A DNA stretch of 64,000 bases from an uncultured Candidatus Rokubacteria bacterium (GTDB lineage: Bacteria > Methylomirabilota > Methylomirabilia > Rokubacteriales > CSP1-6). Position 1 is the stretch's first letter, and every line of letters begins with the position of its first letter. Below the pieces are notes generated by a model. The model was given only the letters and a program-made list of their open reading frames with translations, ran no database searches and was not told where the DNA came from. The translations under genes were made by a program, and so were the position numbers. Below, piece by piece: positions 31,844 to 50,646 of this stretch. The stretch covers positions 288,001 through 352,000 of the forward strand of contig CAVVEU010000040.1 in assembly GCA_963747235.1 (NCBI GenBank), in the 5' to 3' direction.

Positions 31844-33110
<1,267 letters not shown>

Positions 33111-33134: not shown

Positions 33135-35378
33135 TTATGTGAGGGCGTTCAAGGCTGAGCCCGCCTTGAACCACCCGATCTGCTCGTCGGTCATCGTCTG
33201 CAGACACTGAATGGTGACGGTCTTGCCGTCCGGCTTGTGGATCACCACCTCCACCGGCTTGCCGGGCGCGAGCGCGGCCAGCCCGCGCACGCTCACGCGG
33301 TCTCCCTGCTCGAAGAGGTCGTAGTCCGACGTCTTGGCGAAGGTCAGGGGCAGGATCCCCTGCTTCTTGAGGTTCGTCTCGTGGATGCGCGCGAAGCTCT
33401 TGACGATGACCACCTTGCAGCCCAGGTAGCGGGGCGACATGGCGGCGTGCTCGCGGCTCGACCCCTCGCCGTAGTTCTCGTCGCCGATCACGATCCAGCT
33501 GATCCCCTTGGCCTTCAGATCCCGCGCGTTCGCGGTGAAGGTCTTGACCTCGCCGGTGATCGGGTTGGCGCCCTTGCCCGCCTCCCCGGTGAACGCGTTG
33601 ACCGCGCCCAGGAACATGTTGTCGCTGATGCGGTCGAGGTGCCCGCGGAAGCGCAGCCAGGCGCCGGCGGGGGAGATGTGGTCGGTGGTGGTCTTGCCCT
33701 TGGTCTTCACCAAGATGGGAAGCTCACCGAAATCTCTGCCATCCCAGCGCGGGAACGGCTGCAGGAGCTGCAGCCGCTCGCTGTTCGGCGCGATCGCGAC
33801 CTGCACGCGGTCGCCGTCGGACGCGGGCGCCTCGAAGCCCGCGTCGCCGCCCGCGAAGCCCTGGGCCGGCAGCTCCTCGCCCTCCGGCGCGGTGAAGCGG
33901 AACGGCTTGCCGTCCGGCCCGGGAATCGTCCCGTGCACCGGGTCGAACTCGAGCGTGCCCCCGAAGGCCAGCGCGGTGACGATCTCCGGGCTGGTCAGGA
34001 ACGAGAGCGTGGAGGCGCTGCCGTCGTTGCGCCCCGGGAAGTTCCGGTTGAACGAGGAGACGATGGTGTTGGTCTCCTCCTTGCCGACGTCGCTGCGCTT
34101 CCACTGCCCGATGCAGGGGCCGCACGCGTTGGCGAGCACGGTGCCCCCGATCTTCTGGAAGGTGTCCACCATGCCGTCGCGCTTGATCGTCTGGTAGATG
34201 CGCTCCGAGCCCGGCGTCACCAGGAACGGGGTCTTGGCCTTGACCCCGGCCTTGAGCGCCTGCATCGCGATGTGGGCGGCCCGCTTCATGTCCTCGTACG
34301 AGGAGTTGGTGCAGGAGCCGATCAGCGCCTGGCGGATGCCCGCGGGCCAGCCTTCCTTCTTCACCTCGGCGGCCAGCTTCGAGATCGGCCGCGCCCGGTC
34401 CGGCGAGTGCGGGCCCACGATGTGCGGCTCGAGCTCCGAGAGGTTGATCTCCACCACCTCGTCGTAGTACTTCTGCGGGTCGCGGATGACCTCGGGATCG
34501 GCCACCAGGTGCTGGCGGTGCTGCTCGGCGAGCCGCGCGATGTCCGCGCGATCGGTGGCGCGCAGGTAGGCGGCCATGCGGTCGTCGAAGTGGAAGAGCG
34601 AGGTGGTGGCGCCCAGCTCCGCGCCCATGTTGCAGATGGTGCCCTTGCCGGTGGCGCTGATGGACTCGGCGCCCGGCCCGAAGTACTCGATGATCTTGTT
34701 GGTGCCGCCCTTGACGGTCAGCAGCCCGCAGAGATAGGTGATGACGTCCTTGGGGGAGCTCCAGCCGGTGAGCTTGCCGGTGAGGTGCACGCCGATCAGC
34801 TTGGGATCGAGGACTTCCCACGCCAGCCCCGCCATGGCCTCGCCGCAGTCCGCGCCGCCGACGCCGATGGCGACCATGCCGAGGCCGCCCGCGTTGGGGG
34901 TGTGGGAGTCCGCGCCGATCATGAGGCCGCCCGGGAAGGCGTAGTTCTCGAGCACCACCTGGTGGATGATGCCGGCGCCCGGCTTCCAGAACCCGATGCC
35001 GTACTTCTTCGAGGTCGAGTGCAGGAAGTCGTAGACCTCGCGGTTCTCGTTGATGGCGCGCTGCATGTCCTCGGCCGCGCCGCTCTCCGCCCGGATCAGG
35101 TGGTCGCAGTGCACCGTGCTGGGCACCGCCACCTGCTTCTTGCCCGCCTGCATGAACTGCAGGAGGGCCATCTGGCCCGTGGCGTCCTGGAGGGCGACCC
35201 GGTCCACCCGCAGCCGGAGCTGGGCCTTGCCCCGGCTCCATTCCTGCTTGGCGAAGTCGTCGGCGTGGGCGACCAGGATCTTCTCGGCCAGGGTGAGGGG
35301 GCGGCCGAAGCGCCGGCGCGCCTGATCGAGCTTGCCGGGCATGGATTCGTACAGCCGCTTGACCTGGTCAACCGACAT
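33135..35378 (-). CDS. acnA: Aconitate hydratase (mitochondrial-like type)
   Basis: [60 protein letters not shown]. Confidence 0.96.
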
Positions 35379-35460
35379 GGTGGGCCTCCTCGACCGGCAG
35401 ACATACGTATCGCCTCCAACCCGCGGTCAGGCAGGAGGCGACTAGATAAAATCCGCACTT

Positions 35461-35489
35461 ACGCTAACATGACGCCCCGGGGAGGTCAA
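35461..35489 (-). promoter_or_regulatory. Sigma70-type promoter of the TCA cluster
   Basis: Minus strand TTGACC-N17-TAGCGT with a TG extension, about 80 nt upstream of the aconitase start. Confidence 0.65.
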
Positions 35490-35928
35490 GGGAACGGGCC
35501 CCGGCGACCGCCTCCGCGATCCGCCGGCGCACGTCCTCCATCTCGGCCGGGTCGGCGTAGCGCCCGCGCGGCCAGAAGAAGCCGCGAAGCCCGTCGCCCC
35601 GCCGCCGCGGCACCACGTGCACGTGGAGATGCGGCACGCTCTGGCTCACCCGGTTGTTGACCGCCACGAAGGAGCCGTCGGCGCCGAGCGCCCCCTCCAC
35701 CGCCCGCGCGAGCACGCGCACCGCGTCCCAGAGCGGCGCGGTCAGCGCGGCGGGCAGATCGCCGATGGTCTCCACGTGCTCGCGGGGGACCACGAGGCAG
35801 TGGCCGGGGAAGAGCGGCCGGTGATCGAGGAACGCCACCACCGCGCGCGTCTCGAGCACGAGGGCGCCCGGCTCTTCCGAGCGCGCGATGCGGCAGAAGA
35901 GGCAGCCCGCGACCGGGTCCGGGCTCAC
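35464..35928 (-). CDS. HIT family hydrolase
   Basis: CLFC, FLDHRPLFPGHCLVVP, QSVPHLHVHVVPR. Confidence 0.93.
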   Translation of the reverse strand: MSPDPVAGCLFCRIARSEEPGALVLETRAVVAFLDHRPLFPGHCLVVPREHVETIGDLPAALTAPLWDAVRVLARAVEGALGADGSFVAVNNRVSQSVPHLHVHVVPRRRGDGLRGFFWPRGRYADPAEMEDVRRRIAEAVAGARSLDLPGASC

Positions 35929-35938
35929 GGGTCCGCGG

Positions 35939-36634
35939 TCAGCCGAGCAGGCCGCGCACCGCGCGGCGCCGCAGCGCCAGGATGGACTCGGTCGGCGAGA
36001 TCTCCATCGGGCAGACGTCGGTGCAGTTGGCCTGGCTGTGGCAGCGCATCAGCGTGTCCTCCGAGACCAGCACCGCCGCGCGGTCGGCGTGGCCGGCGTC
36101 CCGGCTGTCGGTGGCCACCGTGAAGAGGCGGTTCAGCGCGGCCGGGCCCGGGAAGCGCTCGTCGTTCGCCACCATGGTGCAGGCCGACACGCACATGCCG
36201 CAGCCGATGCACTCGATCGCGGGATCGATGCGCTGCCGCTCCGGCGCGTCCGCGCCGACCGGAGCGAAGGCCGCCGGCTCCTCCTTCGGCACGAAGGTGG
36301 CGCCCACGCGCGCGGTCTGCTCGGCGAGCGGCGCCAGGTCCACCACCAGGTCGCGGATGAGCGGGAAATGGTAGAGCGGGCGCACGGTCACGATGCGGGT
36401 CTTGAGGCTCTTCAGCAGGGTCCGGCAGGCCCAGCGCTCGCGCCCGTTGATGACCATCCCGCACGAGCCGCACATGCCCACGCGGCAGGCGTAGCGGAAG
36501 GCCAGGGTCGGGTCGAGGCGGCGCTGGACGTCCACCAGCGCGTCGAGCACCGTCATGCCCTCCTTGGCGGGCACCCAGAAGCGCTGGATCCGCTCGCGGA
36601 AACCGGGAGACCAGCGGAAGACCTTCAGGACCAT
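35939..36634 (-). CDS. Second Sdh/Frd-type iron-sulfur subunit
   Basis: YACRVGMCGSC...WAC, CIGCGMCVSAC, RCHSQANCTDVCP. Confidence 0.9.
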   Translation of the reverse strand: MVLKVFRWSPGFRERIQRFWVPAKEGMTVLDALVDVQRRLDPTLAFRYACRVGMCGSCGMVINGRERWACRTLLKSLKTRIVTVRPLYHFPLIRDLVVDLAPLAEQTARVGATFVPKEEPAAFAPVGADAPERQRIDPAIECIGCGMCVSACTMVANDERFPGPAALNRLFTVATDSRDAGHADRAAVLVSEDTLMRCHSQANCTDVCPMEISPTESILALRRRAVRGLLG

Positions 36635-36954
36635 CGCCACCCCCACACCGCGGCGAAGATGAGCGCGGCCAGCGCCACCGCGATCACGAGCAGGAGCCGG
36701 TGCCAGCGCACCGGCAGGCCGAAGTCGAGCAGGATGGCCCGCGCGCCGAGCAGGCCGTGCACGAGCACGAGGGCCAGCAGGATCCCCTGCACCGTGCGCC
36801 AGTACGGCGTGCGCACGTGGAGCACGATCACCCCGAGGAGGGCCACCGCGGCGGCGCGCTGCACCAGCCAGGCCCACATCCCGGCCCGCGTGCCGCGCCA
36901 GCCCTCGGTGGTGGCCCACCGGCGCCGCAGGATCCGCCGGGGCCGCTTCGGCAT
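36625..36954 (-). CDS. Short SdhC/SdhD-like membrane anchor (~109 aa)
   Basis: GMWAWLVQRAAAV...VLHV...LVHGLLGARAILLD, three TM segments; overlaps both neighbouring genes. Confidence 0.75.
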   Translation of the reverse strand: MPKRPRRILRRRWATTEGWRGTRAGMWAWLVQRAAAVALLGVIVLHVRTPYWRTVQGILLALVLVHGLLGARAILLDFGLPVRWHRLLLVIAVALAALIFAAVWGWRWS

Positions 36955-38699
36955 CAGTCGCCGACGTCCACCGTCGTGGGCCGGCGCGCCGCGTCCGGCT
37001 TGAGCCGCGTGTAGCGCACCGGCTCGGTCCACACCTTCGGGCCCGCGCCGTCGGCAAAGCCGGCCAGCACCGCCACCGGCTCGCCCGCCGTCGCCGGGAA
37101 GTCGCGCCGGTAGTGCGAGCCGCGGCTCTCGGTGCGCTCGAGCGCGCTGCGGGCGATCAGCCACGACGCGGTGGCCTGGTTCTGGAGATTGATCCAGTCC
37201 TGCCACGCGAGGTTATAGGCCCCGCCGCCCCGGACCGCCACGCTCTCGAGCCGGCTCGAGATGTCCTCGATCTCGGTCAGCGCCAGCTTGAGGCCCTCGC
37301 CGGCGCGGATCAGCCCCACGTGATCCCACATGACCTGCCGGAGCCGCGCCTGCAGGGCGTAGAGGCTCTCGCTCCCCTCGCTGCGCGCGAGCGGCGCGGT
37401 GGTGGCCGCGACGGCCGCGTCCACGTGCGCGCGCGAGAGCTGCGGCAGCGGGCGCCCGACCACCCAGTCCGCCATCACGTCGCCCGCGATGCCGCCGAAC
37501 ACGGTGGACTCCGCGACCCCGTTGCCGCCGAGCCGGTTGGCGCCGTGCACGCCCCCGGTGTCCTCGCCGGCCGCGAAGAGGCCCTCCACGTCGGTGCGGC
37601 AGGCGCGGTCGATCACGATGCCGCCCATCATGAAGTGGGCGGTCGGCCCCACCTCGACCGGCTCGCGCGCGAGGTCGCGGCCGAAGTCGCGGCAGCGCCG
37701 CACCATGCCGCGGAAGCTCTTCTCGACCACCTCGGCGCCCAGGTGCGAGACGTCGATCCACACGCCGCCGTTGGCGGTGCCGCGGCCTTCCAGCACCTCG
37801 GTGTGGCAGGCGCGCGCCACCAGGTCGCGGGTGGACCGCTCGAGGCGCGTGGCGTCGTAGCGCTGCATGAACCGCTCGCCGCGGCCGTTGAGGAGCCGGC
37901 CGCCCGCCCCGCGCAGCCCCTCCTCGAGCAGCGCGCCGGTCATGAGCGAGTTGGGCACGATGAGCCCGGTCGGGTGGAACTGCACCATCTCCATGTCGCG
38001 CAGGCGCACGCCCGCGTGCAGGCCGAGCGCGATGCCGTCGGAGGACTTGTCGGCCGAGCAGGCGATGACCTTGTACATGGTCGGGCCGCCGCCCATCGCG
38101 AGCAGGATGGCGCGGGCGCGCACCACCACGAAGGTGCCGCGGCGCACGTCGAGCAGCAGCACGCCGCCCACCTGGCCGCCGTCGGCGCGGAGCAGCTCCA
38201 CCGCCCGGTGCTCCTCGAGCGGCCGGATGGACGGGCGCCGCCAGACCTGCTCGGTCAGGCGGTTCATGATCTCGATGCCGGTGAGGTCGCCCTTGTGGAT
38301 GGTGCGGTCGTGGCTCTGCCCCGCGAAGGGCTTCTGGTGGATGCGCCCGTCCGGGTGACGGTCGAAGAAGCAGCCGTAGCGCGCCTCCAGCTCGAGCACG
38401 CGGCCGGGCGCCTCGTGGACCAGGGTCCACACCAGCTCCTGGTCGTTGATCCACGCCCCGCCCTGCAGCGTGTCGAGCAGGTGCGCGTCGAGCGAGTCGG
38501 GCGCCGCGAGCACCGCGTTGTACCCGCCCTGCACCATGCGGGTGCAGCCGGCGCGGCCGAGCAGGCCCTTCACCGCCACCGTCACCGTGAGGCGTGGCGC
38601 GCGATCCGCGGCGTGGAGCGCGGCGCAGAGCCCGGCGCCGCCCGCGCCGAGCACGAGGATGTCGGTATCGAGGCTGTCGAGGACGAGATCGGTGGCCAT
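36954..38699 (-). CDS. Sdh/Frd/NadB-family flavoprotein without the covalent-FAD His
   Basis: GAGGAG, RAGCTRMVQGG, QFHPTG, LLEEGLRGAGG, ERSTRD, AHFMMGG, HGANRLGGNG, ESRGSHYR. Confidence 0.9.
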   Translation of the reverse strand: MATDLVLDSLDTDILVLGAGGAGLCAALHAADRAPRLTVTVAVKGLLGRAGCTRMVQGGYNAVLAAPDSLDAHLLDTLQGGAWINDQELVWTLVHEAPGRVLELEARYGCFFDRHPDGRIHQKPFAGQSHDRTIHKGDLTGIEIMNRLTEQVWRRPSIRPLEEHRAVELLRADGGQVGGVLLLDVRRGTFVVVRARAILLAMGGGPTMYKVIACSADKSSDGIALGLHAGVRLRDMEMVQFHPTGLIVPNSLMTGALLEEGLRGAGGRLLNGRGERFMQRYDATRLERSTRDLVARACHTEVLEGRGTANGGVWIDVSHLGAEVVEKSFRGMVRRCRDFGRDLAREPVEVGPTAHFMMGGIVIDRACRTDVEGLFAAGEDTGGVHGANRLGGNGVAESTVFGGIAGDVMADWVVGRPLPQLSRAHVDAAVAATTAPLARSEGSESLYALQARLRQVMWDHVGLIRAGEGLKLALTEIEDISSRLESVAVRGGGAYNLAWQDWINLQNQATASWLIARSALERTESRGSHYRRDFPATAGEPVAVLAGFADGAGPKVWTEPVRYTRLKPDAARRPTTVDVGD

Positions 38700-38717
38700 C
38701 GGTCCGTGGCCCCGAGA

Positions 38718-39266
38718 CTACTTCGCCGGCGCGGCCACCAGGGCGTCGAGGAAGGCGCGGCCGGCCTTGCCGTCCCACTCGCGGGTGCCCGCGGCCCGGG
38801 CGACCAGGCGCCCGTCGCGGCCGATCACGATGGTGGTCGGCGTGGCCCGCACCCGGTACTCGCGCGCGACCGCGCCGTCGCCGTCCAGGAGCACGGACGA
38901 GGTCACGCCCGCGCCCTTCACGTAGCTGGCCACCAGGTCCCGCGGCTCCTCGATGCTCACCGCGAGCACCGTGAACGGCTGGCCCTTCCGCTCGCGGACG
39001 ATCTTCTCGATGGCGACGGGCAGCTCCTTGCGGCAGTAGCCGCACCAGGTGGCCCAGAAGTAGACGAGCACGACCTTGCCCTGCTGCTCGGCCAGGGACG
39101 TCTTGCCGCCGCCGTCCACCTTCGGCAGCGAGAAGCCGGGGGCCCGCTCGCCGGGCAGCGCGTTGAGCTGGAGCTCGCGCAGGTACCGGTCGATCTCGTC
39201 GGCCGCCGCGGGCGCGGCCCAGGCGAGGCTTCCGGCCAGCAGCGCGCCCAGCACCACCCGTCTCAC
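38718..39266 (-). CDS. Exported TlpA-like thioredoxin
   Basis: Signal-like N-terminus, APGFSLP, FWATWCGYC, ATPTT; GTGA overlap with soxZ. Confidence 0.9.
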   Translation of the reverse strand: MRRVVLGALLAGSLAWAAPAAADEIDRYLRELQLNALPGERAPGFSLPKVDGGGKTSLAEQQGKVVLVYFWATWCGYCRKELPVAIEKIVRERKGQPFTVLAVSIEEPRDLVASYVKGAGVTSSVLLDGDGAVAREYRVRATPTTIVIGRDGRLVARAAGTREWDGKAGRAFLDALVAAPAK

Positions 39267-39592
39267 GTGACCTTGACCTCCGCGGTGCCCTCGAACTTCA
39301 CGCCGTGCGAATCGACGAACGTCACCTTGAGGGGCCCCGCCTCCGTGGCGCGAAAGGGAATCGTGAACATCGGGTTCTCGCTGACCGCCGTGGACGGCTC
39401 GATCACGGCGATCTCGCGGCCGAGGTACGTTACCACGATGCGGTTGACGAAGCGGTAGTTGCGATCCACCGACCGCCCGCCCTGTCGCTCCACCCGCTCC
39501 TGGGGATGGATGACCAGGGCCCGCACCCGCGCCACGCTGCCCCGGCGGACGCTGCCCGGCACGGCCAGCTTCACGGTCCCGATGTCGGCCAT
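39263..39592 (-). CDS. soxZ: SoxZ-like sulfur-carrier partner
   Basis: VRALVIHPQE, AVSENPMF, GPLKVTFVDSHG. Confidence 0.8.
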   Translation of the reverse strand: MADIGTVKLAVPGSVRRGSVARVRALVIHPQERVERQGGRSVDRNYRFVNRIVVTYLGREIAVIEPSTAVSENPMFTIPFRATEAGPLKVTFVDSHGVKFEGTAEVKVT

Positions 39593-39595
39593 GGC

Positions 39596-40082
39596 TCAGG
39601 CCGCGCAGCCCGCCACCGTGACGCGGACGTCGCGGGCGGCGATCCAGAGCGTTCCGTCGCCGGTCTCGGCGACGACGCGGACCGGCCCGCTGTCGGCCAG
39701 GCGCAGGTTGGTCGCCACGTAGGCCTGGCCGGCGGCCGGCGTCAGGCTGATCTTCACGTTGAGCGGGCGCGGGTTCTTCTCGGCGAGGATGTAGATCGCC
39801 TTGACGTGGTTCTCCGGCGTCATCGGCGACTTCACCTCGACCGCGATCGGCACCGAGGCGCCGTCCTCCGCGATGAGCGGCATGTCGATCGTGATGAGCG
39901 CGGCGCCGTCCTTGATCGGGCGGCCGCCGAAGAGCCGCTTCATCGTCTCGGCGATCGGCTCTTCCGGCGCCAGGTTGGCGAGGTAGCCCTGCGCGCGGGC
40001 GGGCCACGGGCGCCACGCCGCCGACGGCGGCGCCGAGCGCGGCCAGGCCCAGCCATGCGCGGCGCGTGAGCAGAGAGGTCAT
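39596..40082 (-). CDS. soxY: SoxY-like sulfur carrier with Tat signal; frameshift near 39995
   Basis: LTRRAWLG Tat motif; PLIAEDGASVPI, EKNPRP, C-terminal VRVTVAGCAA. Confidence 0.85.
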
Positions 40083-40122
40083 GGCTCTCAGGATGCCTTC
40101 GATCGTAGCCTTGTCAACGCCT

Positions 40123-42865
40123 TCACTCGATGCGGTAGGCCGACGCGTCGGGCTTGAACGCGCGCGGCAGCCAGAGCGGCCGGCGCAGCCCGTCGGGACC
40201 CGGCGCGGGCCGGGCCATCGCGAGCCACTTGCGATAGACCTCGAAGGACTTGTTGGTGTCCACCACCACGTCGCCGTAGCGATCGTTCGGGCCGGGCCGG
40301 CTCACCGTCACCTTCTGATGCCAGCAGTGCTGGCCGCTCACCGGATCGGGATGCACCGGGAACGTCAGGTTCTGGTGCACGCCCGCGTCCTCCCACCACA
40401 CGCGCTGCGAATCGGGATCGGCGCTCTCGAAGGGCCGCACCCCGTGCACGTGACGGAGACGCCACTCGCCCGCCCGCGGGTTCTCGAGCGTCACCAGCGC
40501 GGTGGACCAGCGCTCGCCGCCGGTCTGCTCGGCGAGGCGCCAGCGCCCCAGGTGATGCGAGCACGCGAGCACGCCCGGCCGGATCGACTCGGTCACCCAC
40601 ACCCGGTCCACGAAGTGCCCGATCTCGGTCGTGACCTTCAAAAGGTCGCCGGTCGTCACGTTATGCCGCGCCGCATCCTCCGGATGCAGCCAGAGCGGGT
40701 TGTTGTGGGAGATCTCGTAGAGCCACTTGGCGTTGCCGGAGCGCGAGTGGATCAGGGTCGGCAGCCGGAAGGTGGGCAGGAGCGCCATCTCGCCCGCGGC
40801 CCGGTTCATCTCGCGCCAGTGCACGTGGCTGCGCGCGTAGGTGGGCACCGCGTGCTCCGGCCACTTCCACTCCTTGAGCGTCCGCGAGTAGAACTCGAGC
40901 TTGCGCGACGGCGTCGGGAAGCCGCCCATCCACTGCCCGTCCACCTCCACGCCCTCCCCCGCCGCGACCGGCGTCTCGTGGGTGCGGTAGACGTTCTCCT
41001 GGATCAGGAACGCGCCGTACTTGCGCATGTACGCGAGCGGGGCCAGGCCCTCGCGCTCGGCGGCCGCGGGCAGGCCGGGCACGCTGTGCTCGAAGATCCA
41101 GCGGTAGAACTCCTCGATGCGGAGCTTCTCGCCGGGACGATAGGGCGACTCGAAGTACTTGCGGATCCCGAGCGCGCCGTCCGGATCGATGCGCCACGAC
41201 AGCTCGATCCAGAACTCGTCCTCCTCCCACACCTGCCCGAGCCCCGCCGCCTCGTGCGCCTGCCAGGTGAGGTCGAAGCGCTGGCCCTGCTTCTCGAGCG
41301 CCACCCGCAGCACCGGCTGGCGGAAGCCGATCCAGCGCGCGGCGTGGGTCTCCTGGCTCATGAGGTCGTGGCGCTCGGAGGCGTGCCCCATCGGCAGCAC
41401 GTAGTCGGCGAACCACGCGGTCTCGCTCCACGTGGGGGTGAGGCAGGCGTGGCGCTCCACCTTGGCCTCGTCGGTCAGCATCTCGATCCACGACATGCCG
41501 TCCGGATTGGTCCACACCGGGTTGTAGACGCGGGTGAAGTACATCGCGAGCTTGCCGCGACCTTCCTTCAGGAAATGCGGCAGGAGAAAGCTCATCTCGA
41601 AGAACGCGAGCGGGTACTCCCGCGGCATCAGGAGCTCGCTCCAGATCTTGCCCGGCGGCGGCATCATCGGCGGGGTCGGGCACCGCCTTGTTCCAGCCGG
41701 AGGGCGCGGTGCCGCCCGGCGTGGCCACCGCGCCCGCCAGCACCACCACCAGCTCGAGCGCCCGCGCCACTTCCCAGCCGTGGAGGTTGCCCGCGGCGGC
41801 GTTGCGCCAGACGTGGGTGGAGAGCGCGCTGCCGGCGCGGCCGACCTCGCGCGCCACCTCCTCGATGCGCGCGGCGGGCACCCCCGACTCGCTCTCCGCG
41901 AACGCGGGGGTGTACTCGGCGTAGAGCGTCTTCAGCGCCTCTTCGAAGGAGGCCATGGTGACCGGCAGCTCCGGCCGCTCTTCCCGCAGGTACTGCTCCC
42001 AGTTGACCCAGCGGCGGACGAACTCGCGGTCCCATGTGCCGTCGCGCAGCATGCAGTGGGCGATGGCCAGGAGCAGCGCGGCCTCGGTGCCCGGCCAGGG
42101 CGAGAGCCAGTAGTCGGCCATCGAGGCGGTATTGCTGAGGCGCGTGTCCAGCACGCAGATCTTGGCCCCCGCCATCTTGCCCTCCATGATGCGCTGGGCG
42201 TGCGGGTTGAAGTAGTGGCCGGCCTCGAGGTGCGAGGAGAGCAGCAGGATGAAGCGCGCCTTGCTGTGATCGGGCGAGGGCCGGTCGAGCCCGTGCCAGA
42301 AGGCGTAGCCCGCGCGCGCGGAGGCGGAGCAGACATTGGTGTGGCTGTTGTGGCCGTCGATGCCCCAGGCGTGGAAGACGCGCTGCAGATAGATGAGCTC
42401 GTGGCCCGGCCGCCCGAGGTGATACATCACTTCCTTCTGGCGGCCCTCGACCAGCGCCTTCCGGATGCGCCCGCCGATGTCGTCGAGCACCTCGTCCCAG
42501 GTCACGCGCTCCCACTTGCCCTCGCCGCGCTTCCCGGCCCGCCGCAGCGGGTAGAGGATGCGCTCGGGATCCGTGATCTGGTTGAGCGTCGCGGGCCCCT
42601 TGGCGCAGTTGCGCCCGCGGCTGCCCGGGTGCACCGGGTTGCCCTCGAACTTGTGGATCTGCATCGTCTTGGGATCCACGTAGGCCAGCAGCCCGCAGCC
42701 CGCCTCGCAGTTGAAGCAGATGGTCGGGATGAGCTGGAACCGCCGCTTGACCTTGGCCGGCCACGCCTTGGCGTCGAACTCCTCCCAGTCATCCCACCGC
42801 GCCGCCGGCGGGAACCGCTCGAGGCCGGAGGCCGGCGCCGCCAGCCCCCGCGCCACCGGGTGCAA
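40123..42865 (-). CDS. Molybdopterin (DMSO reductase/MopB superfamily) oxidoreductase catalytic subunit; frameshift near 41680; start uncertain
   Basis: TICFNCEAGC...GRNCAKG [4Fe-4S] motif, ERILYPLRR, GHNSHTNVCS, WSETAWFADYVLP..SER, LIHSRS, LWLHPEDA. No twin-arginine signal visible. Confidence 0.9.
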
Positions 42866-42877
42866 CGGCTCTGCTCT

Positions 42878-42904
42878 GGGGTCAGGTCTTGCATTACGAC
42901 ATTT
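42878..42904. repeat. Single arm of the 3939-4023 REP-like element
   Basis: GGGGTCAGGTCTTGCATTACGACATTT, 26 of 27 positions identical. Confidence 0.85.
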
Positions 42905-42927
42905 CCTCTGCGGTTTGAGGTTAGGGT

Positions 42928-44493
42928 CTAGCTGAGCGGGAGCATCTGGCCGGCGCGGATCCAGAGCTCCTCCCAGAGCCAGAGGCCGGCCAGCGCCAGG
43001 CCCGCGGCCAGCTCGGAGCCGAAGGGCACCGACGCGCTCAGCAGCAGCACGAGCGGCAGCGCGATGCCCGCGGCCGCCACGCCGCCCCAGAGCGGCGCGC
43101 GCAGCGGGCCGTGCGTCAGGAGCCGCGCCGCACGCCGCGCTTCCTCCGTGCCGTGCGCGCCGAAGAGCTCGGCGCCCAGCACCAGCGCGCTCACCAGCAG
43201 CGAGGCCCAGAGCACGAGCCCCAGGCCGCCCACGATGAACGACGCGCTGCCGACCACGCGCGCGGCGAGCAGCAGGCTGGCCGAGCCCCCGACGAGCGCG
43301 GCCACCAGCAGGTGCGGCAGCAGCAGCGGGCTCTGCCAGAAGTCGCGGCCCTCGGCCTGGCCGAAGAGAAACGCGCTGTAGCCCGCGGTCGCCGCCGCCA
43401 CCACCGCCATGGGCCAGGCCAGCAGGTGCAGCGCCACGAGATTGCCGATGAGGCCGGCCAGCAGCCACAACGTGCCCAGCACGCCGGCCGCGAACAGGAT
43501 GAAGCCGCCCAGCACGAGCCACGAGCGCGGATTCGGCTTGAAGATCAGGAAGAGGAAGCGCTCCGGCCGCTTGAGATCGAGCACGAGGAGCAGCGAGGTC
43601 AGCAGCAGGAAGGCCAGGCCGATCGCGGGCACCGCGAGGCCGGTCAGCGCGTCCGCGGTGAGGAAGCCGGCGCCGATGCCGAGCGAGGCGACCAGGAAGG
43701 CGCCCGCCGCGATGGACTTGGTCCAGAGATACGCGGCGACCTTCCAGCCCCACGGCCGCTCGGGGTGCGCGACATCGTAGACGGTACGCGCCAGCGCCAG
43801 CAGATCCATTCCGTCGGTCGCGGCCGTGACGCGGTCGGCACCGCCGGCTGCGCGACGGGACGATTCGGCTTGCCCGGGATTCGGGATGCGCCCGACCTGC
43901 GAGAACAGGTAGCCGCCGCGCCGCTCCTGCATCTCCGGCGTGAGCGCGGCCGACTCCGCGCCCACGTAGAAGAGCTTCGGCCGCGTCCCCTGCTCCGGCT
44001 TGCGCACCTGGGTCTGCTGCGAGGCCACGAGCCGCGCGATCGTGCTCCCCGGATCGTCGAGATCGCCGGGCACGATGGCCTGCACCGGGCACACCACGAC
44101 GCAGGCCGGCTCGAGCCCCGACTCCACGCGATGGGCGCAGTAGTGGCACTTGGCCGCGGTGTTCGTCTCGGGATCGATGTAGAGCGCGTCGTAGGGGCAC
44201 GCCTGCATGCACGACTTGCAGCCGATGCACCGCGAGCCGTCGAAGTCCACGATGCCGTCGGGCCGGCGGTAGAGCGCCACCGTCGGGCAGATGGTCACGC
44301 AGGGCGCGTTGTCGCAGTGGTTGCAGCGCATCACCGTGAAGTAGCGCCGCGTGTCCGGGAAGGTGCCCTTCTCGATGTACTTCACCCAGGTGCGGTTGAC
44401 GCCCAGCGGAACCTGGTTCTCCTCCTTGCAGGCCACCGTGCAGGCGTGGCAGCCGATGCACTTCCGCTGGTCGATCACGAAGCCGTAGCGCAT
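42928..44493 (-). CDS. Four-cluster ferredoxin (NrfC/PsrB-like) fused to NrfD/PsrC membrane domain
   Basis: CIGCHACTVAC, CNHCDNAPCVTICP, CIGCKSCMQACPY, CHYC...PACVVVCP; then PWGWKVAAY, LVLDLKRPERF, RSWLVLG and multiple TM segments. Confidence 0.92.
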   Translation of the reverse strand: MRYGFVIDQRKCIGCHACTVACKEENQVPLGVNRTWVKYIEKGTFPDTRRYFTVMRCNHCDNAPCVTICPTVALYRRPDGIVDFDGSRCIGCKSCMQACPYDALYIDPETNTAAKCHYCAHRVESGLEPACVVVCPVQAIVPGDLDDPGSTIARLVASQQTQVRKPEQGTRPKLFYVGAESAALTPEMQERRGGYLFSQVGRIPNPGQAESSRRAAGGADRVTAATDGMDLLALARTVYDVAHPERPWGWKVAAYLWTKSIAAGAFLVASLGIGAGFLTADALTGLAVPAIGLAFLLLTSLLLVLDLKRPERFLFLIFKPNPRSWLVLGGFILFAAGVLGTLWLLAGLIGNLVALHLLAWPMAVVAAATAGYSAFLFGQAEGRDFWQSPLLLPHLLVAALVGGSASLLLAARVVGSASFIVGGLGLVLWASLLVSALVLGAELFGAHGTEEARRAARLLTHGPLRAPLWGGVAAAGIALPLVLLLSASVPFGSELAAGLALAGLWLWEELWIRAGQMLPLS

Positions 44494-44494
44494 G

Positions 44495-45282
44495 TCAGTG
44501 GCCGATCACGTCGTACCAGACGCGGAGCATGACCAGCGTGATGATCCCCGCGAGCACGCCCCGCAGCACCAGCACCGGCACGCGCCGGCTCACCCGGCTG
44601 CCCAGCGGCGCGCCGGTGAGCGAGCCCAGCACCACGGTCAGCGCGGGCCACCACGGGACCTGGCCGGTCAGCGCCTTGCCCAGGAAGCCGGTCACCGCGG
44701 AGATGCCCACCATGGCCAGCGAGGTGCCGATGCTGAGCCGCATCGGGAGGCGCAGCACGCCCACCAGCACCGGCACCACGAGGAACGCCCCGCCCGCGCC
44801 GACGAATCCGGCCACGACGCCGATGGCCCCGAAGAGCGCGATCACGACCGCGCGGCTGAAGGTCATCGGGGCCCGGTCGTCACCGCCCCGCGGATCGGCG
44901 GGTGCGACAAGCATGAGCGGCAGCGCGATCGTGGTCATGAGCGCGAACGTGACGAGGAGCAGCGCGCCCGGACACGTGGGAGGAGAGGATCGCGCCCAGC
45001 CAGCGAGCCCACCGCCATCGCGGCACCCCCGGTCAGCGCCAGCCCGCGGTGCACCAGCGCGTGCCGCCCGTGACTCCACGTGCCCACCGCCGCGGCCGCG
45101 AGCACCTGGGTCATGCTGAGCCCGGCCACCGCCTTGATCGGCAGCTCGCCCGCGCCCACCAGCGGCGGAACGTAGTAGAGCAGCGGGATCATCACGATGG
45201 CGCCGCCCACGCCGACGAGCCCGGAGACGAAGGCGCCGCAGAAGGCGAGGACGAAGAGGGTGATCTCCAGCGTCGGCGTCAC
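44495..45282 (-). CDS. TauE/SafE (TSUP) family transporter; frameshift near 44990
   Basis: SGLVGVGGAIVMIP, AGFVGAGGAFLVVP, IGTSLAM. Confidence 0.88.
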
Positions 45283-45356
45283 GCGTGCGCCTGCCGCAGG
45301 GCATGGTGGCTCATGAGGGCCACCATGATAGCGCGACTGGCCCGTTCGAGCGCCGC

Positions 45357-45976
45357 TTACCTGAGGCTCGAGTAGTACGCGGCCAGGTCCCCGAGGGTCT
45401 CGTCGGGGATCGTCTTCAGCAGCGCCTTGAGCGCGGCCAGCGCCGGGTCGCCCGGGCTGCGCCGATCCTGCTTGAACAGCAGCATCTGCTCGCGCAGATA
45501 GCCGGGCGCCTGCCCGGCCAGGTTCGGAATCAGCTTGGCCGCGTCGCCCTGTCCCTGCGGGCCGTGACAGATCGCGCACTGGGCCGCCGCGCTGCCGCCC
45601 GCGGGCCACCGCGTCGGCGGGCGACTGGATGGGCGTGGGCTCGCGTCGGCGGGAGGCGAAGTAGGCCGCGACGTCGTCCACGCCCAGGTTCAGCACCTGC
45701 TTGGCGTAGGGCTCCATCTCGGCCGAGAGCCGCTTGCCCGCCGCGTAGTCCTGCGATCTGCTTCTTCAGATACGCCGCGTCCTGGCCCGCGATGATCGGC
45801 ATCGCGCTCGAGCGGCTATTGCCCGCCTGCCCGTGGCAGGCCGCGCAGGTGACGGACTTGAGCGCGCCGCGCTCGTCGAGCGGGCCCGCGGCGTGAGCGG
45901 CGCCGCCGGCCAGCGCGGCCAGCGTGAGCGCGACGACCAGAGCGAGACCACGTGGCGTGACACGCATGGCGCTCAT
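45357..45976 (-). CDS. fccA: Diheme cytochrome c (c4/FccA-like); frameshifts
   Basis: Signal peptide, CAACH and CAICH heme motifs, two PxxAGQ...YL..Q repeats; ATGA overlap with fccB. Confidence 0.8.
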
Positions 45977-47242
45977 GCCAGGATGTCCGCCCAGATGGAC
46001 TGGGTCCAGCCGATGGCCCGCTGGGCCACCAGCGGGCTCTGCGCCGGCGTGAGCTTCTGCTCGATCTGCACGACCTTGCCGTTCTCGATGCGGTACGCGT
46101 TCACCACCGCGATGGCCTCCCGGTCGCTGACCCAGCTATAGCAGGTGTTGCCGGGCGCGAGTGTCGGCGCCTCCTTGCCGTTGATCAGGCTGACCACCGA
46201 GGCGGCGGTGATCTTGCCCATCGCATTGGCCACGTTGCCCGACTTCGGCACGGGCAGGCCGATGGTGGCGTCGCCGATCACGTGGATGCCCGGCTGCTTC
46301 ACCGACTCGTAGGTGACGTGGTTGACCTCGCACCAGCGCTTGTCGCCGCCGACCAGGTCGGCCTGCACCGCGATGGCGCCCGCGCGCTGGGGCGGGATCA
46401 CGTTGACCACGTCGTAGCGGATCTTGTCGAACTCGGTGCGGACTTCCTTGTTGCCCGGATCCACCCCGACCACGCGGCTCGCGGCGCGGTAGTCGATGTT
46501 CGGATAGGCCTGCCACGCGGTCCGGAAGAGCGCGGTCTTGGAGATGATGTTCTGGTTGGCGTCCAGCACGATCAGCTTCGACCTGGGCTTGTTGGTCTTG
46601 AGGTACCAGGCCACCATCGAGGTGCGCTCGTAGGGGCCGGGCGGGCACCGGTAGGCCGCGAGCGGGATGCTCAGCACGAACACGCCGCCGTCGGGCATCG
46701 CCGCGAGCTGCTGGGCGAGCTGCACGGTCTGGGGACCCGCCTTCCACGCGTGCAGGACCTTGTCCTGGTTCTGGGCGAGCCCTTCCACCTGCTCCCACTG
46801 GAAGTCCACGCCGGGCGAGACGATGAGGCGGTCGTACTGCGAGATATCCCTCGCCGAGCCGCACGCGCTTCTGGTCGGGCTCGATGGCGGTGGCCGTCTC
46901 GTGGATGATCCGCACCCCGTGCTTGCGCAGGCCGTCGTAGCCCATCGTGAGCGAGTCGATCGAGCGCAGGCCCGCCAGGACCAGATTGCTGAACGGGCAG
47001 GAGATGAACTCGCGGTTGGGCTCGATCAGCACCACCTCGATGTTCGGGTCGAGCAGGCGCACGTACTTGGCCGCCGTCGCCCCGCCCCAGCCGCCGCCGA
47101 TCACGACGACGCGCGGGCCCTTCTTCGGGGCGAAGTCGCCCTTGATCGCGGTGGCGCATCCGGTGAGCCCGGCGCCGGCCAGCACGCCGAGTCCGAGGCC
47201 GGACGACCGCAGGAATGCCCTTCGCGTGACCACGCTCGTCAT
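45973..47242 (-). CDS. fccB: Flavocytochrome c sulfide dehydrogenase flavoprotein (FccB/SoxF); frameshift near 46840
   Basis: TRRAFL Tat motif, VVVIGGGWGG, SCPFSN, YRCPPGPYER, IGDA, PKSG, NTCYS. Confidence 0.92.
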
Positions 47243-47301
47243 TGTGCCGCCGCCTCCCTGGTGCCGCGTCGAATTCTCAATTCTTGACCGGGATCGACGA
47301 G

Positions 47302-47330
47302 AATCTACCGAGGCGACCTGGACCTGTCAA
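47302..47330 (-). promoter_or_regulatory. Near-consensus sigma70 promoter heading the sulfur cluster
   Basis: Minus strand TTGACA-N17-TAGATT about 60 nt upstream of fccB; GGGAGG RBS follows. Confidence 0.75.
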
Positions 47331-48577
47331 GCCGATTGGGCGGTTCCGAGCACCTGCCTGACCCGCTCCAGGATCTCCTCGGGTGCCCCCGCGAGGTGAA
47401 CGGGCGGCGGGAGCGGGGGCGGCGGGTGCTTGATCCCGGCTCCGGTCAGGACGAGCACGATGCGCGCCGTGGCGTCGACCTGGCGCTCGTCCAGCATCTG
47501 GAGGAGGGCGGCCAGGGTCGCGGCGGCCTCGGGTGCCGTCCAGATCCCCTCGACCCGGGCGAGCAGCTGCTGGGCATCCACGATCGCCTGCTCGCTGACC
47601 GTCTGTGGAAAGCCCCCGCTCTCTCGCAGGATGCGCAGCATCTGCCGGCCCGCGAAGGGTCCGGGCACGCGCAGGCCGGGCGCGTTCGTGAACGGGTTCT
47701 CCACCGCGGTGGTGGTCTCGGCCTTGTCTTCCCACGCGCGCGCCAGCGGCGCGCAGCCCTCCGCCTGCACCGCGACGAAGCGCGGCGGCGCGGCCGCGAC
47801 CCAGCCCATGGCCGCGAGCTCCTCGTAGGCTTTCCAGATGCCGACGAGACCGGTGCCTCCGCCGGTCGGGTAGAGGAGCCAGTCCGGAGCATCCCACCCG
47901 AGCTGCTCCGCGAGCTCGAGGCCCATCGTCTTCTTGCCCTCGAGCCGGTACGGCTCCTTGAGCGTGGCCAGATCGAACCAGCCGATCCGCGGCGCGACCG
48001 CGGCGATGGCGCGGCCGGCGGTGGCGATCGTGCCGTCCACGGTGAAGACGTGGGCGCCGGCCAGCATCGCCTCCGCCACCGCGGCCTCCGGCGTGTCGCG
48101 GGGCACCACCACCGCGATCGGAGAGGCCGGCGCGGGCCCCGTAGACCGCGGCGGCGCCGCCCGCGTTGCCCGCCGAGGGGATCATCAGGCCGGTGACGCC
48201 GAGCGTGCGCGCGCGGGTGATGGCCATCCCGAGCCCGCGCGCCTTGAACGTGCCGGTCGGGTTCTGCCCCTCGTCCTTGGCCCAGAGATGCCGCAGGCCC
48301 AGATGCGCGGCGAGCCGGGGCAGCGCGAGCAGCGGCGTGCCGCCCTCGCCGAGCGTGATCGGCTCCTCGCCGTCGGCGAGCGGCAGCAGCTCGCGGAAGC
48401 GGTACATCCCGGGCGGACGGCGCGCGAGATCGTCCCGGGTGAGGGCCGCGGCGACGCGCGGCAGATCGTAGCGGACCGCGAGCATCTGGCCGCACTGCTC
48501 GCAGACGGTGAGCAGGCGGTGGTGGTCGTGGCGCCGGGCGCAGACCGTGCACTCGACGTGCGTGACGAAGCTCGTCT
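47327..48577 (-). CDS. thrC: Threonine synthase; frameshift near 48120; start codon apparently damaged
   Basis: CTVC..CEQC, LGEGGTP, NPTGTFKARG (PLP Lys), PSAGNAG, EGKKTMG, YPTGGGTG. Confidence 0.85.
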
Positions 48578-50646
48578 TAGTGCTTCTCTTTCTCGGCCCG
48601 GTGAGAAGCGACGACCTTCTCGGCCTGCTGGTTCGGCACCTCTTCGTAGTGCGAGAACTCCATCGAGTAGCCGCCGCGGCCGCCGGTCATCGAGCGCAGG
48701 CTCGACTCGTAGGTGAGCATCTCCGACATCGGGACCTGCGCGCGCACCGCCACCACGTCGCCGTCCGGCTCCATGCCCACGATGCGGCCGCGCCGGCCGT
48801 TGAGATCGCCGATGACGTCGCCCGCGCCCTCCGACGGCGCGGTGACCTCCACGTTCATCACCGGCTCGAGCAGGCAGGGCTTGGCCTCCATGAAGCCCTT
48901 CTGCAGGCCCATCGAGGCCGCGATCTGGAACGCCATGTCCGAGGAGTCCACGTCGTGATAGGAGCCGTCGTAGAGCGTGACCTTCAGATCCACCACCGGG
49001 TAGCCCGCGAGGATGCCGCGCTTCATGCAGTCGCGCACGCCCTTCTCCACCGAGGGGATGAAGTTGCGCGGAATCGCGCCGCCGAAGATGTCGTCCACGA
49101 ACTCGAAGCCGCCGCCGCGGGTGAGCGGCTCGACGCGGATCCAGGTGTCGCCGTACTGGCCGCGCCCGCCGGTCTGCTTCTTGTACTTGCCCTGCACCTC
49201 GGCGCGGCCCTTGACCGTCTCCCGGTAAGGAATGCGCGGCGGGAGCAGGGACACGTCCACGTTGTACTTCCGCTTCATCCGCTCCACCACGACCTCGACG
49301 TGGAGCTGGCCCATGCCCGAGACCAGGAGCTGCTTGGTCTCCGGGTCGTAGTGGTGGTGCAGCGTGGGGTCTTCCTCGGCCATGCGGTGCAGCGCGGTCG
49401 AGATCTTGTCCTCGTCGCCGCGGGTCTTCGGCTGGATCGCGAAGGAGATCGCGGGCTCCGGGAAGGAGATGCCGGGCAGCACGACCGGATGCGCCTCGTC
49501 GGAGAGCGTGTCGCCGGTGAGCGTGTCCTTGAGCTTGGCCACCACACCGATCTCGCCCGGCCCGAGCGCCTCGACGTGCTTCTGGGTCTTGCCGGAGAGC
49601 CAGCCGAGATGCCCGATCCGCTCGCGGCTGTCGCGGCTCGCGTTGTAGACCTGGCTGTCGGCGCGCAGCGTCCCCGAGTAGACCCGGAAGACGGAGAGCT
49701 TGCCCACGTGCGGGTCCGAGATGGTCTTGAACACCACCGCGCTGAGCGGGGCCTTGGGATCGGCGGCGCGCCGGGCCGCGGCCTTGGTGCGCGGCTCCGT
49801 GCCCTCCACCTCCGCCGCGTCGGCGGGCGACGGGAATTCCTTCACGAGGAGGTCGAGCAGCGGCGCGATCCCGATCCCGCGCGTGGCCGAGCTGGCCAGG
49901 ATGGGCACGAGATCGCCGGACATGATGGCCCGGCGCAGCGCGGCCAGCATCTCGGGCTCGCCGATCGAGCCCTCCTCCAGGTACTTCGCGAGCAGATCGT
50001 CGTCGGTCTCCGCGGCGGCCTCGACCAGCTTCTCGCGGTAGGACTTCGCGGTCTCGACGAGATCGGCCGGGATCTCGGCTTCCTTGACCTTGCCGTCAGC
50101 CAGGACCAGCGCCCGCATCGCGATCAGGTCCACCACCCCAATGAAGCTGTTCTCGGCGCCGATCGGGAGCTGCATTGGGACGAGCCGGCCCTTCAGACGC
50201 TTCTGCAGCGACTCGAGCGTGCGGAAGAAGTCGGCCCGCTCGCGGTCGAGCCGGTTCACCACGATCGCGCGCGGCAGCGCGAAGTCGTTGGCGAACTTCC
50301 AGACCTTCTCGGTCTGCACCTGCACCCCCGCCACCGCGTCCACCACCACCACCGCGGCGCCCGCCACCCGCAGGCCCGCGCGCGCGTCGGCCACGAAGTC
50401 GCCGTAGCCGGGGGTGTCGATGAGGTTGAGCCGGTGGCCCTGGTGATCGGCGAAGCCGACCGCGGTGTTCAGCGAGATCTTGCGCTTGATCTCGTCGGGG
50501 TCGAAGTCGGTGGTCGTGGTCCCGTCGTCCACACGCCCGAGCCGGGTGCTGGCTCCGCACGCGAACAGGATCGCCTCGACCAGGGAGGTCTTGCCCACGC
50601 CGCCGTGGCCAACGAATGCGACATTGCGGATCTTGGCGATGTCCAT
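48577..50646 (-). CDS. fusA: Elongation factor G (stand-alone paralog)
   Basis: GHGGVGKT, DTPGY, NRLD, GMGQLH, YKKQTGGRGQYG, DGSYHDVDSS, LLEPVM. Confidence 0.93.
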   Translation of the reverse strand: MDIAKIRNVAFVGHGGVGKTSLVEAILFACGASTRLGRVDDGTTTTDFDPDEIKRKISLNTAVGFADHQGHRLNLIDTPGYGDFVADARAGLRVAGAAVVVVDAVAGVQVQTEKVWKFANDFALPRAIVVNRLDRERADFFRTLESLQKRLKGRLVPMQLPIGAENSFIGVVDLIAMRALVLADGKVKEAEIPADLVETAKSYREKLVEAAAETDDDLLAKYLEEGSIGEPEMLAALRRAIMSGDLVPILASSATRGIGIAPLLDLLVKEFPSPADAAEVEGTEPRTKAAARRAADPKAPLSAVVFKTISDPHVGKLSVFRVYSGTLRADSQVYNASRDSRERIGHLGWLSGKTQKHVEALGPGEIGVVAKLKDTLTGDTLSDEAHPVVLPGISFPEPAISFAIQPKTRGDEDKISTALHRMAEEDPTLHHHYDPETKQLLVSGMGQLHVEVVVERMKRKYNVDVSLLPPRIPYRETVKGRAEVQGKYKKQTGGRGQYGDTWIRVEPLTRGGGFEFVDDIFGGAIPRNFIPSVEKGVRDCMKRGILAGYPVVDLKVTLYDGSYHDVDSSDMAFQIAASMGLQKGFMEAKPCLLEPVMNVEVTAPSEGAGDVIGDLNGRRGRIVGMEPDGDVVAVRAQVPMSEMLTYESSLRSMTGGRGGYSMEFSHYEEVPNQQAEKVVASHRAEKEKH

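Follow-up and report, generated by a model that had tools for sequence, protein, structure and literature searches.

A genus-specific version of a putative Rokubacteriales gene cluster for the oxidation of sulfide to sulfate without Sox enzymes

The stretch of DNA analysed here, referred to as the window, comprises 64,000 nucleotides of a genome (assembly GCA_963747235.1, contig CAVVEU010000040.1) whose source organism is a soil bacterium and a member of the Rokubacteriales (Methylomirabilota), an order of abundant and uncultured soil bacteria. Running on the minus strand of the window from position 47330 to position 35464 are twelve genes, in the order fccB, a dihaem cytochrome c gene, tauE, an nrfC-nrfD fusion (nrfCD), mopB, soxY, soxZ, a gene for a tlpA-like redoxin, a gene for an sdhA-like flavoprotein (SdhA2), a gene for a small membrane anchor, an sdhB-like gene and a gene of the HIT family. 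The reading favoured here, with some reserve, is that this locus is a genus-specific version of a Rokubacteriales cluster that oxidises sulfide to sulfate without Sox enzymes. The source genome (G000) measures 5.57 Mb in 42 contigs, which include pieces of megabase scale, and has about 70% G+C and a marker completeness of 88%; the window is part of its contig C40.

The gene order was established by Pfam and NCBIfam scans and by mapping intact orthologues from L002, the locus of the genus relative G001, which has 89% DNA identity to the window and served as the intact reference for gene mapping. All twelve genes are intact open reading frames (ORFs) in L002, where the intergenic spacing ranges from overlaps of 4 nt to gaps of at most 70 nt and where the products include FccB (429 aa), TauE (261 aa), the NrfC-NrfD fusion (520 aa), the molybdenum (Mo) subunit (921 aa), the SdhA-like flavoprotein (581 aa) and the anchor (about 108 aa). 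Upstream of fccB, a sigma-70-like promoter, TTGACA-N17-TAGATT (47302..47330, minus strand), overlaps with its first hexamer the stop codon of a thrC-like gene; it is the sole sigma-70-like match in the 16 kb between 33000 and 49000 (shuffle mean 0.4), and the TTGACA hexamer is kept in L003 and L004, the two relatives whose alignment extends there. The initial annotation of the window had described twelve co-oriented genes of these families in this order, many of them overlapping or a few bases apart, behind a promoter of this sequence, and on these points it is borne out, although it overlooked that five of the genes, and thrC as well, are split between frames.

The nrfCD gene (42928..44493, minus strand, as are all features of the cluster given below) encodes an NrfC/PsrB-type four-cluster ferredoxin fused to an NrfD/PsrC-type membrane subunit (Pfam Fer4_11 and NrfD), with about eight hydrophobic segments and 91% identity to its L002 counterpart over the full length. 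Next to it, mopB (40123..42889) encodes a PSRLC3/SoeA-like Mo-bisPGD catalytic subunit, whose Pfam Molybdop_Fe4S4, Molybdopterin and Molydop_binding matches fall on two frames because of a +1 insertion near 41678. Neither protein carries a twin-arginine translocation (Tat) signal: the N-termini of MopB and NrfCD in L002 have no twin-arginine plus hydrophobic region, and the match of the ferredoxin part to TtrB begins at model position 43, past the signal region. Since the Tat signal is missing from both, the Mo subunit and the ferredoxin are predicted to face the cytoplasm, which agrees with the initial annotation in placing the action of the Mo enzyme on the cytoplasmic side; the link to quinone that it had proposed also appears sound, the Mo enzyme being tied to an NrfD anchor of quinone type. 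In an NCBIfam scan of the Mo subunit no family exceeded its cut-off and no SoeA model was among the matches, the best being PhsA with 174.6 bits (cut-off 694). Among solved structures ArrA (6cz7) and PsrA (2vpw) come nearest, mainly over the N-terminal half, and a conserved Cys of MopB aligns with the corresponding Cys of both and is followed by Ser. We take this Cys to be the Mo ligand. Database names for the family, as found in a protein atlas and in the clusters of 10 distant representatives, are generic only.

The two-gene unit extends far beyond the order. A scan of species-representative genomes with an alignment of five sequences of the Mo subunit as query gave 594 confirmed homologous stretches, and the best 80 of these, on which all neighbourhood counts are based, show 58-83% identity (90% in one partial match) and come from Methylomirabilota, Binatia, Acidobacteriota, several classes of Chloroflexota, Bacteroidota, Chlorobi, Planctomycetota, KSB1, Acidimicrobiia and a gammaproteobacterium. 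An NrfCD homologue lies upstream of the Mo gene in 72 of the 80 loci, mostly directly and at -0.9 to -2.0 kb, and a single high-scoring segment pair covers both the ferredoxin and the NrfD domain in 64 of the 73 loci with a match, those of Chlorobium and Chlorobiaceae included. The Mo protein of L002 is 60% identical (555/922) to a protein of Prosthecochloris aestuarii DSM 271, a green sulfur bacterium in culture, and the Mo subunit is 58-59% identical to proteins of metagenome-assembled genomes (MAGs) from Chlorobium and Chlorobiaceae. We take these Prosthecochloris and Chlorobium proteins to be the ones named PSRLC3, going by published statements and locus tags rather than by a labelled sequence. 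PMC5473276 reports that two genes of a Prosthecochloris genome encode PSRLC3, PMC6338057 calls PSRLC3 an alternative means of oxidising sulfite, PMC9324843 has it "inferred to be sulfite oxidase", and PMC8076601 describes SoeABC as a sulfite:quinone oxidoreductase whose peripheral subunits lie on the N side, that is, in the cytoplasm.

Compared with PSRLC3 of green sulfur bacteria, the unit has the same make-up, a PsrA-like Mo subunit and a single fusion of a PsrB-like ferredoxin with a PsrC/NrfD part, neither with a signal peptide, and in a Chlorobium MAG a TauE gene adjoins it upstream of dsr genes; it differs in its host, here a soil member of the Rokubacteriales in which no dsrA was found, and in its position between fccAB and soxYZ. 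With SoeABC of Allochromatium vinosum and Aquifex aeolicus it shares a Mo-bisPGD subunit with a [4Fe-4S] cluster, a four-cluster ferredoxin, an NrfD-type subunit, the predicted cytoplasmic side and a sulfite context, whereas the B and C parts form one polypeptide here, in the gene order BC-A, and Soe has three separate subunits. The fused FeS-NrfD protein and the Mo subunit are most likely a pair of the PSRLC3/Soe-like kind, a putative cytoplasmic sulfite oxidase. The initial annotation had presented the system as undescribed, and for the core this does not hold: the parts of the cluster are recognisable ones, and sulfite oxidation has already been proposed in print for the family of its core.

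The genes around the unit bear on the same question. Of the best 80 loci, 21 have a homologue of persulfide dioxygenase (PDO)-rhodanese, 11 have TauE, 11 have a SulP sulfate permease and five have DsrE2. In the Chlorobium MAG the neighbours of the unit are, in series, TauE, DsrE2, rhodanese, dsrC and dsrA, and in a Contendobacter MAG they are SsuA-like and flavin mononucleotide (FMN)-reductase genes. Other Rokubacterial genera have the order elongation factor G (EF-G), PDO-rhodanese (PDO-Rhd), with or without TusA, a YeeE-like Sulf_transp gene, fccB, cytochrome c, TauE, nrfCD, mopB and, further along, soxYZ; the PDO-Rhd(-TusA) fusion and the YeeE-like gene are co-oriented with fccB or nrfCD and stand before it at L023:1074-3643, L028:1554-4365 and L025:3553-6102, and in the genus of the window thrC stands where these genera have the PDO-Rhd and YeeE-like genes. 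In family f4 of the order (loci L017, L019, L020 and L021; genomes G015, G017, G019 and G020), nrfCD-mopB lies amid genes for ComA (phosphosulfolactate synthase), a ComDE-like split decarboxylase and an Xsc-like thiamine enzyme, together with genes for a protein of 350-380 aa and a 1200-aa POR/DUF6537 protein (2-oxoacid:ferredoxin oxidoreductase-like), and tauE precedes nrfCD in at least G017 and G019. These surroundings are an organosulfonate context, and no fccAB or soxYZ stands beside nrfCD-mopB at the f4 loci. Because the neighbours each make, consume or export sulfite or sulfate, sulfite is favoured over formate or polysulfide as the compound that the Mo enzyme oxidises.

Linkage was counted over 151 genomes of the order, among which are the unpublished G043, G066 and G094, so that any count may shift by at most three; the fractions take in only genomes with both genes on one contig, since a location on different contigs is uninformative in fragmented assemblies. 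The Mo enzyme was found in 117 of the 151, with 73-94% identity among relatives, an FccB orthologue (rows of at least 63% identity) in about 103, SdhA2 in 91 and a SoxY orthologue in 80. MopB has FccB within 12 kb in 44 of 45 same-contig genomes and SoxY within 8 kb in all 56; in one family of the order the linkage of FccAB and SoxYZ to the Mo enzyme is tight, and they are genuine partners of it, as the initial annotation had grouped them. The position of soxYZ after the Mo gene parallels the connection between SoeABC and SoxYZ that the title of a 2013 study by Dahl et al. reportedly makes. The wider proposal, that all twelve genes form one unit, fares less well: f4 keeps only (tauE-)nrfCD-mopB, with FccB on the contig of the Mo gene in none of the six genomes that have both, in 42 of the 151 genomes the Mo enzyme occurs and the flavoprotein does not, and FccB and SoxY are both absent from 4 of 13 genomes of the genus, in which, according to DNA alignments, thrC abuts tauE and mopB abuts tlpA. 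As FccAB and SoxYZ are missing from the same four genomes, they are read as one shared addition to a tauE-nrfCD-mopB core that is itself stable.

At the head of the cluster, fccB (45973..47242) encodes a protein with a Tat signal, the flavoprotein of a flavocytochrome c sulfide dehydrogenase (FCSD). In the window it is split by a +1 insertion at about 46840, with Pfam Pyr_redox_2 on one frame and FCSD_central and FCSD-flav_bind on the other (tblastn frames -1 and -2). The intact FccB of L002 aligns end to end with the FCSD structures 5n1t, 1fcd and 3vrd (E about 1e-100), and three Cys-containing motifs of these structures are conserved in it, which presumably comprise the Cys that binds flavin adenine dinucleotide (FAD) and the redox-active Cys pair. 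The FccA-like dihaem cytochrome c gene that follows (45357..45976) is spread over three frames by +1 insertions at about 45753 and about 45595; its L002 orthologue has two CxxCH motifs and a weak match to the dihaem PdsA. The pair thus resembles FccAB (1FCD, 5N1T, 3VRD) in fold, Tat signal, Cys motifs and dihaem cytochrome partner, and the sole notable difference is its fixed place, in one family of the order, upstream of a Soe-like unit. The TauE/SafE-family anion exporter (44495..45282) has Pfam TauE matches over residues 1-80 and 86-236 on two frames, with +1 insertions at about 45000 and about 44961. A second gene of the TauE family, intact and scoring 164 bits, lies on the plus strand about 13 kb from the cluster (21029-22066).

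Downstream of mopB, the SoxY carrier (39596..40082; Pfam SoxY 121.8 bits) ends in VTVAGCAA and is interrupted by a +1 insertion at about 40018, within its signal peptide; the L002 orthologue scores 121.8 bits against TIGR04488, whose cut-off is 125. The carrier arm reads AGCAA in the window and in all six genus relatives checked, and the canonical GGCGG is found at five loci of other genera. SoxZ (39263..39592; Pfam SoxZ 55.7 bits) is 91% identical to its L002 counterpart, and it is followed by a TlpA/ResA-like periplasmic thiol-disulfide oxidoreductase with a WCGYC motif (38718..39266; Pfam Redoxin and AhpC-TSA; ResA 80.3 bits against a cut-off of 170). In having a SoxY-SoxZ pair followed by a periplasmic protein of thioredoxin fold (compare SoxS/SoxW), and in the GGCGG end found in other genera, the cluster resembles the Sox system; it differs in having no SoxB, SoxAX or SoxCD and in the AGCAA arm of the genus, and SoxXA stands at a separate locus. 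The gene at L023:15760-17589, directly after soxYZ and before the redoxin, encodes a protein of 610 aa whose C-terminal domain is of 5'-nucleotidase type; this protein may be a divergent SoxB-like hydrolase, and no orthologue of it was found in G000.

The ORFs of the window that were scanned yielded no sox, dsr or hdr enzyme family, in line with what the initial annotation had noted, and a full sox set was not found elsewhere in G000 either, where no SoxC exceeded its cut-off and DsrA gave no match; SoxB was over its cut-off in none of 21 genomes. A second sox-like cluster does stand on contig C8 of G000 (140053-143292), with genes for an fccB/soxF-like flavoprotein, SoxX (84.5 bits, cut-off 61), a SoxY paralogue that ends in LAACLEDGI, probably SoxZ, and SoxA (223 bits, cut-off 110), and with no SoxB. 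SoxA was over its cut-off in G000 only, on this contig. Contamination was considered as a source of the C8 cluster and is unlikely, as similar pairs of fccB-like and soxY-like genes recur in other genomes of the order.

Taken together, the parts suggest a route from sulfide to sulfate across the membrane. FccAB would oxidise periplasmic sulfide to sulfane sulfur, passing electrons to cytochrome c, and the sulfane sulfur would then reach the cytoplasm, possibly carried on the SoxY Cys, which the TlpA-like protein would keep reduced. There, PDO-rhodanese, encoded on contig C8 in G000 and within the cluster in other genera, would convert the sulfane sulfur to sulfite, the PSRLC3/Soe-like Mo enzyme would oxidise sulfite to sulfate and reduce menaquinone, and TauE would export the anion. 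Heterotrophic sulfide oxidation proceeds from sulfide:quinone reductase (SQR) or FCSD through PDO-rhodanese to a sulfite-oxidising enzyme. The clusters of other Rokubacterial genera are like this route in that PDO-rhodanese(-TusA) and a YeeE-like transporter are co-oriented in them; the proposed route differs in that PDO-Rhd is unlinked in G000 and in that the sulfite step is assigned to an enzyme of PSRLC3 type.

The last part of the cluster is of a different kind. SdhA2 (36954..38699; Pfam FAD_binding_2 at 256 bits, and Succ_DH_flav_C) is an SdhA/FrdA-like flavoprotein whose best family model is archaeal TfrA, at 575 bits against a cut-off of 718, and whose best structural relative is Mycobacterium smegmatis Sdh1 (7D6V). 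It has a Cys aligned to the covalent-FAD His of Escherichia coli FrdA, a residue that we take to be His44, and keeps the His and Arg residues of the dicarboxylate site; the motif GCTRMVQGG was found in all eight SdhA2 orthologues checked, and the other SdhA of the window has His. It is followed by a small hydrophobic anchor of about 108 aa with some three helices (36625..36954), which matches Sdh_cyt at only 21.8 bits (E = 2e-4), below the cut-off of 25.8, by an SdhB/FrdB-type iron-sulfur subunit (35939..36634; TIGR00384 187.5 bits, cut-off 88; Pfam Fer2_3 and Fer4_8) and by the HIT-family protein (35464..35928; Pfam HIT 76 bits). Likeness to complex II (E. coli quinol:fumarate reductase; M. 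smegmatis Sdh1) lies in the conserved dicarboxylate site, the three-cluster subunit of SdhB type and the hydrophobic anchor, and difference in the Cys that replaces the covalent-FAD His, in the single small anchor gene and in a best model that is archaeal TfrA and below cut-off. G000 has two SdhA/SdhB sets, both within the window, the other being of His type and part of a run of tricarboxylic acid (TCA) cycle genes. This run lies directly downstream on the minus strand (23862-35378) and contains genes for aconitase, isocitrate dehydrogenase, malate dehydrogenase, the alpha and beta parts of fumarase, the His-type SdhA/SdhB and SucC/SucD; its order is read as acn-icd-mdh-fum-sdhCAB-sucCD, starting right after the HIT gene, and several of its genes are split by single-base indels.

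A number of observations count against the sulfide-to-sulfate reading. In G000 the PDO-Rhd orthologue lies outside the cluster (C8:38083-39478, 53-66% identity), and no close YeeE-like importer was found with the one query used on this 88% complete genome; because of these two points the passage from periplasmic sulfane sulfur to cytoplasmic sulfite is only inferred. The family assignment of the Mo enzyme is drawn from architecture, from 60% identity to a generically named protein of a green sulfur bacterium and from gene context, and a biochemical demonstration of enzyme activity for the fused form or for PSRLC3 was not found in the literature searched. The Chlorobaculum locus CT0494 is presumably a PSRLC3 locus. 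PMC8076601 tentatively labels the complex encoded there "FqoABC", a formate:quinone oxidoreductase, and gives the FqoABC group a similar taxon spread (Chlorobi, Chloroflexi, Actinobacteria and Deltaproteobacteria). That the Mo enzyme should be this "FqoABC" of Calisto and Pereira, as database names such as "formate dehydrogenase [Candidatus Rokuibacteriota]" would also have it, is nevertheless very improbable: the Fdh-alpha model gives 128.8 bits against a cut-off of 666, the Cys of MopB is followed by Ser and not by His, and the gene neighbourhoods concern sulfur, not formate. In formate dehydrogenases, the Cys or selenocysteine at the Mo site is accompanied by His. Less remote, and still improbable, is a cytoplasm-facing reductase or oxidase of polysulfide, thiosulfate or tetrathionate in place of a sulfite dehydrogenase, to which the best NCBIfam and structural matches (PhsA, ArrA and PsrA, with TtrB best for the ferredoxin part) would lend themselves, as would the rhodanese, DsrE2 and TusA neighbours, which also handle sulfane sulfur. 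These matches, however, lie far under their cut-offs and mainly in the N-terminal half, the recurring neighbours PDO, ComA, SulP, TauE and dsrAB make or export sulfite or sulfate, and PMC8076601 describes the Psr, Phs and Ttr enzymes known so far as exported by Tat, whereas MopB has no signal.

A larger alternative would take the genes from fccBA through tauE, nrfCD, mopB, soxYZ and tlpA to sdhA2, the anchor and sdhB as one operon, in which electrons from sulfide or sulfite pass via menaquinone to fumarate through the Cys-type complex II. The tight spacing from fccB to HIT behind one promoter-like site speaks for it, and in 45 of 48 same-contig genomes no more than 12 kb separate SdhA2 from MopB, with gaps sometimes of 19-36 bp, a closeness that is in keeping with co-transcription and speaks against SdhA2 being only a neighbour. 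Absence of the histidyl-FAD link is associated with fumarate reduction, not succinate oxidation, and the replacement of His by Cys in all eight orthologues, with the dicarboxylate-site residues kept, would suit such a role, the more so as the His-type enzyme in the window can serve the TCA cycle. If true, this would amount to anaerobic respiration of sulfur compounds with fumarate in soil Rokubacteriales, by way of a previously uncharacterised complex II clade. It is nonetheless unlikely, with perhaps a small chance of being right. Besides the 42 genomes with MopB and without SdhA2 there are 16 of the 151 with SdhA2 and without MopB, and the genera g15 (MopB in 7/7, SdhA2 in 0/7) and g23 (3/3 and 0/3) keep the sulfur genes without SdhA2. 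The loci from other phyla among the best 80 have no true SdhA2 orthologue beside the unit, the one match being 23% identical and on the opposite strand, and G015 and L024 have other genes between sdhA2 and its anchor and sdhB. The region from EF-G to aconitase is syntenic in the order, and the adjacency may be inherited rather than functional. The link to a dicarboxylate acceptor that the initial annotation had proposed is accordingly to be regarded as hypothetical. Because SdhA2 and the Mo enzyme occur apart in these 42 and 16 genomes, g15 and g23 are without it and the loci of other phyla have no orthologue, SdhA2 is treated here as a neighbour tied to the TCA genes: SdhA2, the anchor, SdhB and HIT most likely represent a second, putatively fumarate-reducing type of complex II that belongs with the adjoining TCA cluster, and the set was most likely carried along by regional synteny and is not an obligatory part of the sulfur module.

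A further alternative concerns the state of the genes in this one genome. In the window fccB, the cytochrome gene, tauE, mopB, soxY and the upstream thrC each run across two or three frames, and alignment with five genus relatives (L002-L005 and L007; some alignments do not reach every site) places single-base +1 insertions at about 48120, 46840, 45753, 45595, 45000, 44961, 41678 and 40018. None of the five relatives has these insertions wherever its alignment covers the site. Three further +1 insertions fall between 43880 and 43829, in the variable linker of nrfCD, where the net frame is restored and the gene remains intact. Real frameshifts in decaying pseudogenes would explain why the insertions are about three times as dense at the sulfur genes (11 in the 8.1 kb of 48122-40014 as compared with 12 in some 27 kb, or about 0.44/kb, elsewhere, the adjoining 4.5 kb being free of them), a density that weighs against intact genes and could mean real decay of the locus, and the loss of fccBA and soxYZ in other members of the genus would be in keeping with it. 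Decay is nevertheless rather unlikely. Every change at these genes is a +1 insertion, and the corrected frames have no stop codons and are 72-94% identical to G001 in tblastn comparisons, like the intact neighbours. Twelve more single-base indels private to the window, relative to both G005 and G008, lie at 3.4-35.9 kb and break sucC (25064, 25418), mdh (31356, 31431), a biotin carboxylase gene and other genes, and a different contig has a 5'-nucleotidase gene that is split likewise. With 42 contigs, some of megabase scale, and a marker completeness of 88%, the assembly is consistent with long-read data prone to indels. Since indels of this kind also disrupt housekeeping genes in other parts of the window, the frameshifts quite probably stem from assembly error, which is likelier than decay. 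This assembly carries many single-base indels, and gene calls taken from it need care.

What appears new is the conserved arrangement in Rokubacteriales, the use of SoxYZ without Sox enzymes and the adjoining Cys-type complex II. The literature on Rokubacteria and Methylomirabilota that was searched gave no account of this cluster, and supplementary tables may already list some of its genes; in the part of PMC8780371 available, sulfur metabolism in Rokubacteriales is discussed only through dsr, apr and sat genes. A Mo enzyme annotated generically or as formate dehydrogenase emerges as a near-core gene of the order and as a member of a widespread and highly conserved two-gene family. Its contexts across phyla, with PDO-rhodanese, a YeeE-like importer, TauE or SulP, dsr genes, or ComA and Xsc-like enzymes, make a consistent and testable case for sulfite, and likewise a testable case for the use of SoxYZ independently of Sox enzymes. 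The Cys-for-His clade of complex II is a separate, small puzzle.

Some features at the edges of the cluster and elsewhere in the window remain to be described. Upstream of it and outside it lies a gene for a ThrC-like pyridoxal phosphate enzyme (47327..48569, minus strand), with PALP matches over residues 1-79 and 84-295 on two frames owing to the +1 insertion at about 48120; its two pieces score 149.7 and 296.7 bits against the threonine synthase model PRK08197, and a ThrC-like paralogue stands at G000:C17:38830-39557. Cysteate synthase is a relative of ThrC that uses sulfite. This identity was ruled out for the upstream gene, which reaches 54 bits against a cut-off of 325. An Rfam scan of 33000-50000, with E up to 0.1, gave no match, and a terminator-like site at 35602-35584 was not above chance (one found, shuffle mean 2.8). 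Farther away, all on the minus strand, the region 58109-63015 has a squalene/phytoene synthase gene fused to or overlapping an epimerase-like ORF, a gene for a radical SAM protein with DUF3463 and a gene for a carotenoid-synthesis protein, and looks like a hopanoid or carotenoid block, and the region 15426-19517 contains an ORF of 1364 aa in which a sigma-54 activator domain occurs together with an AAA_16 ATPase domain and with TPR repeats.

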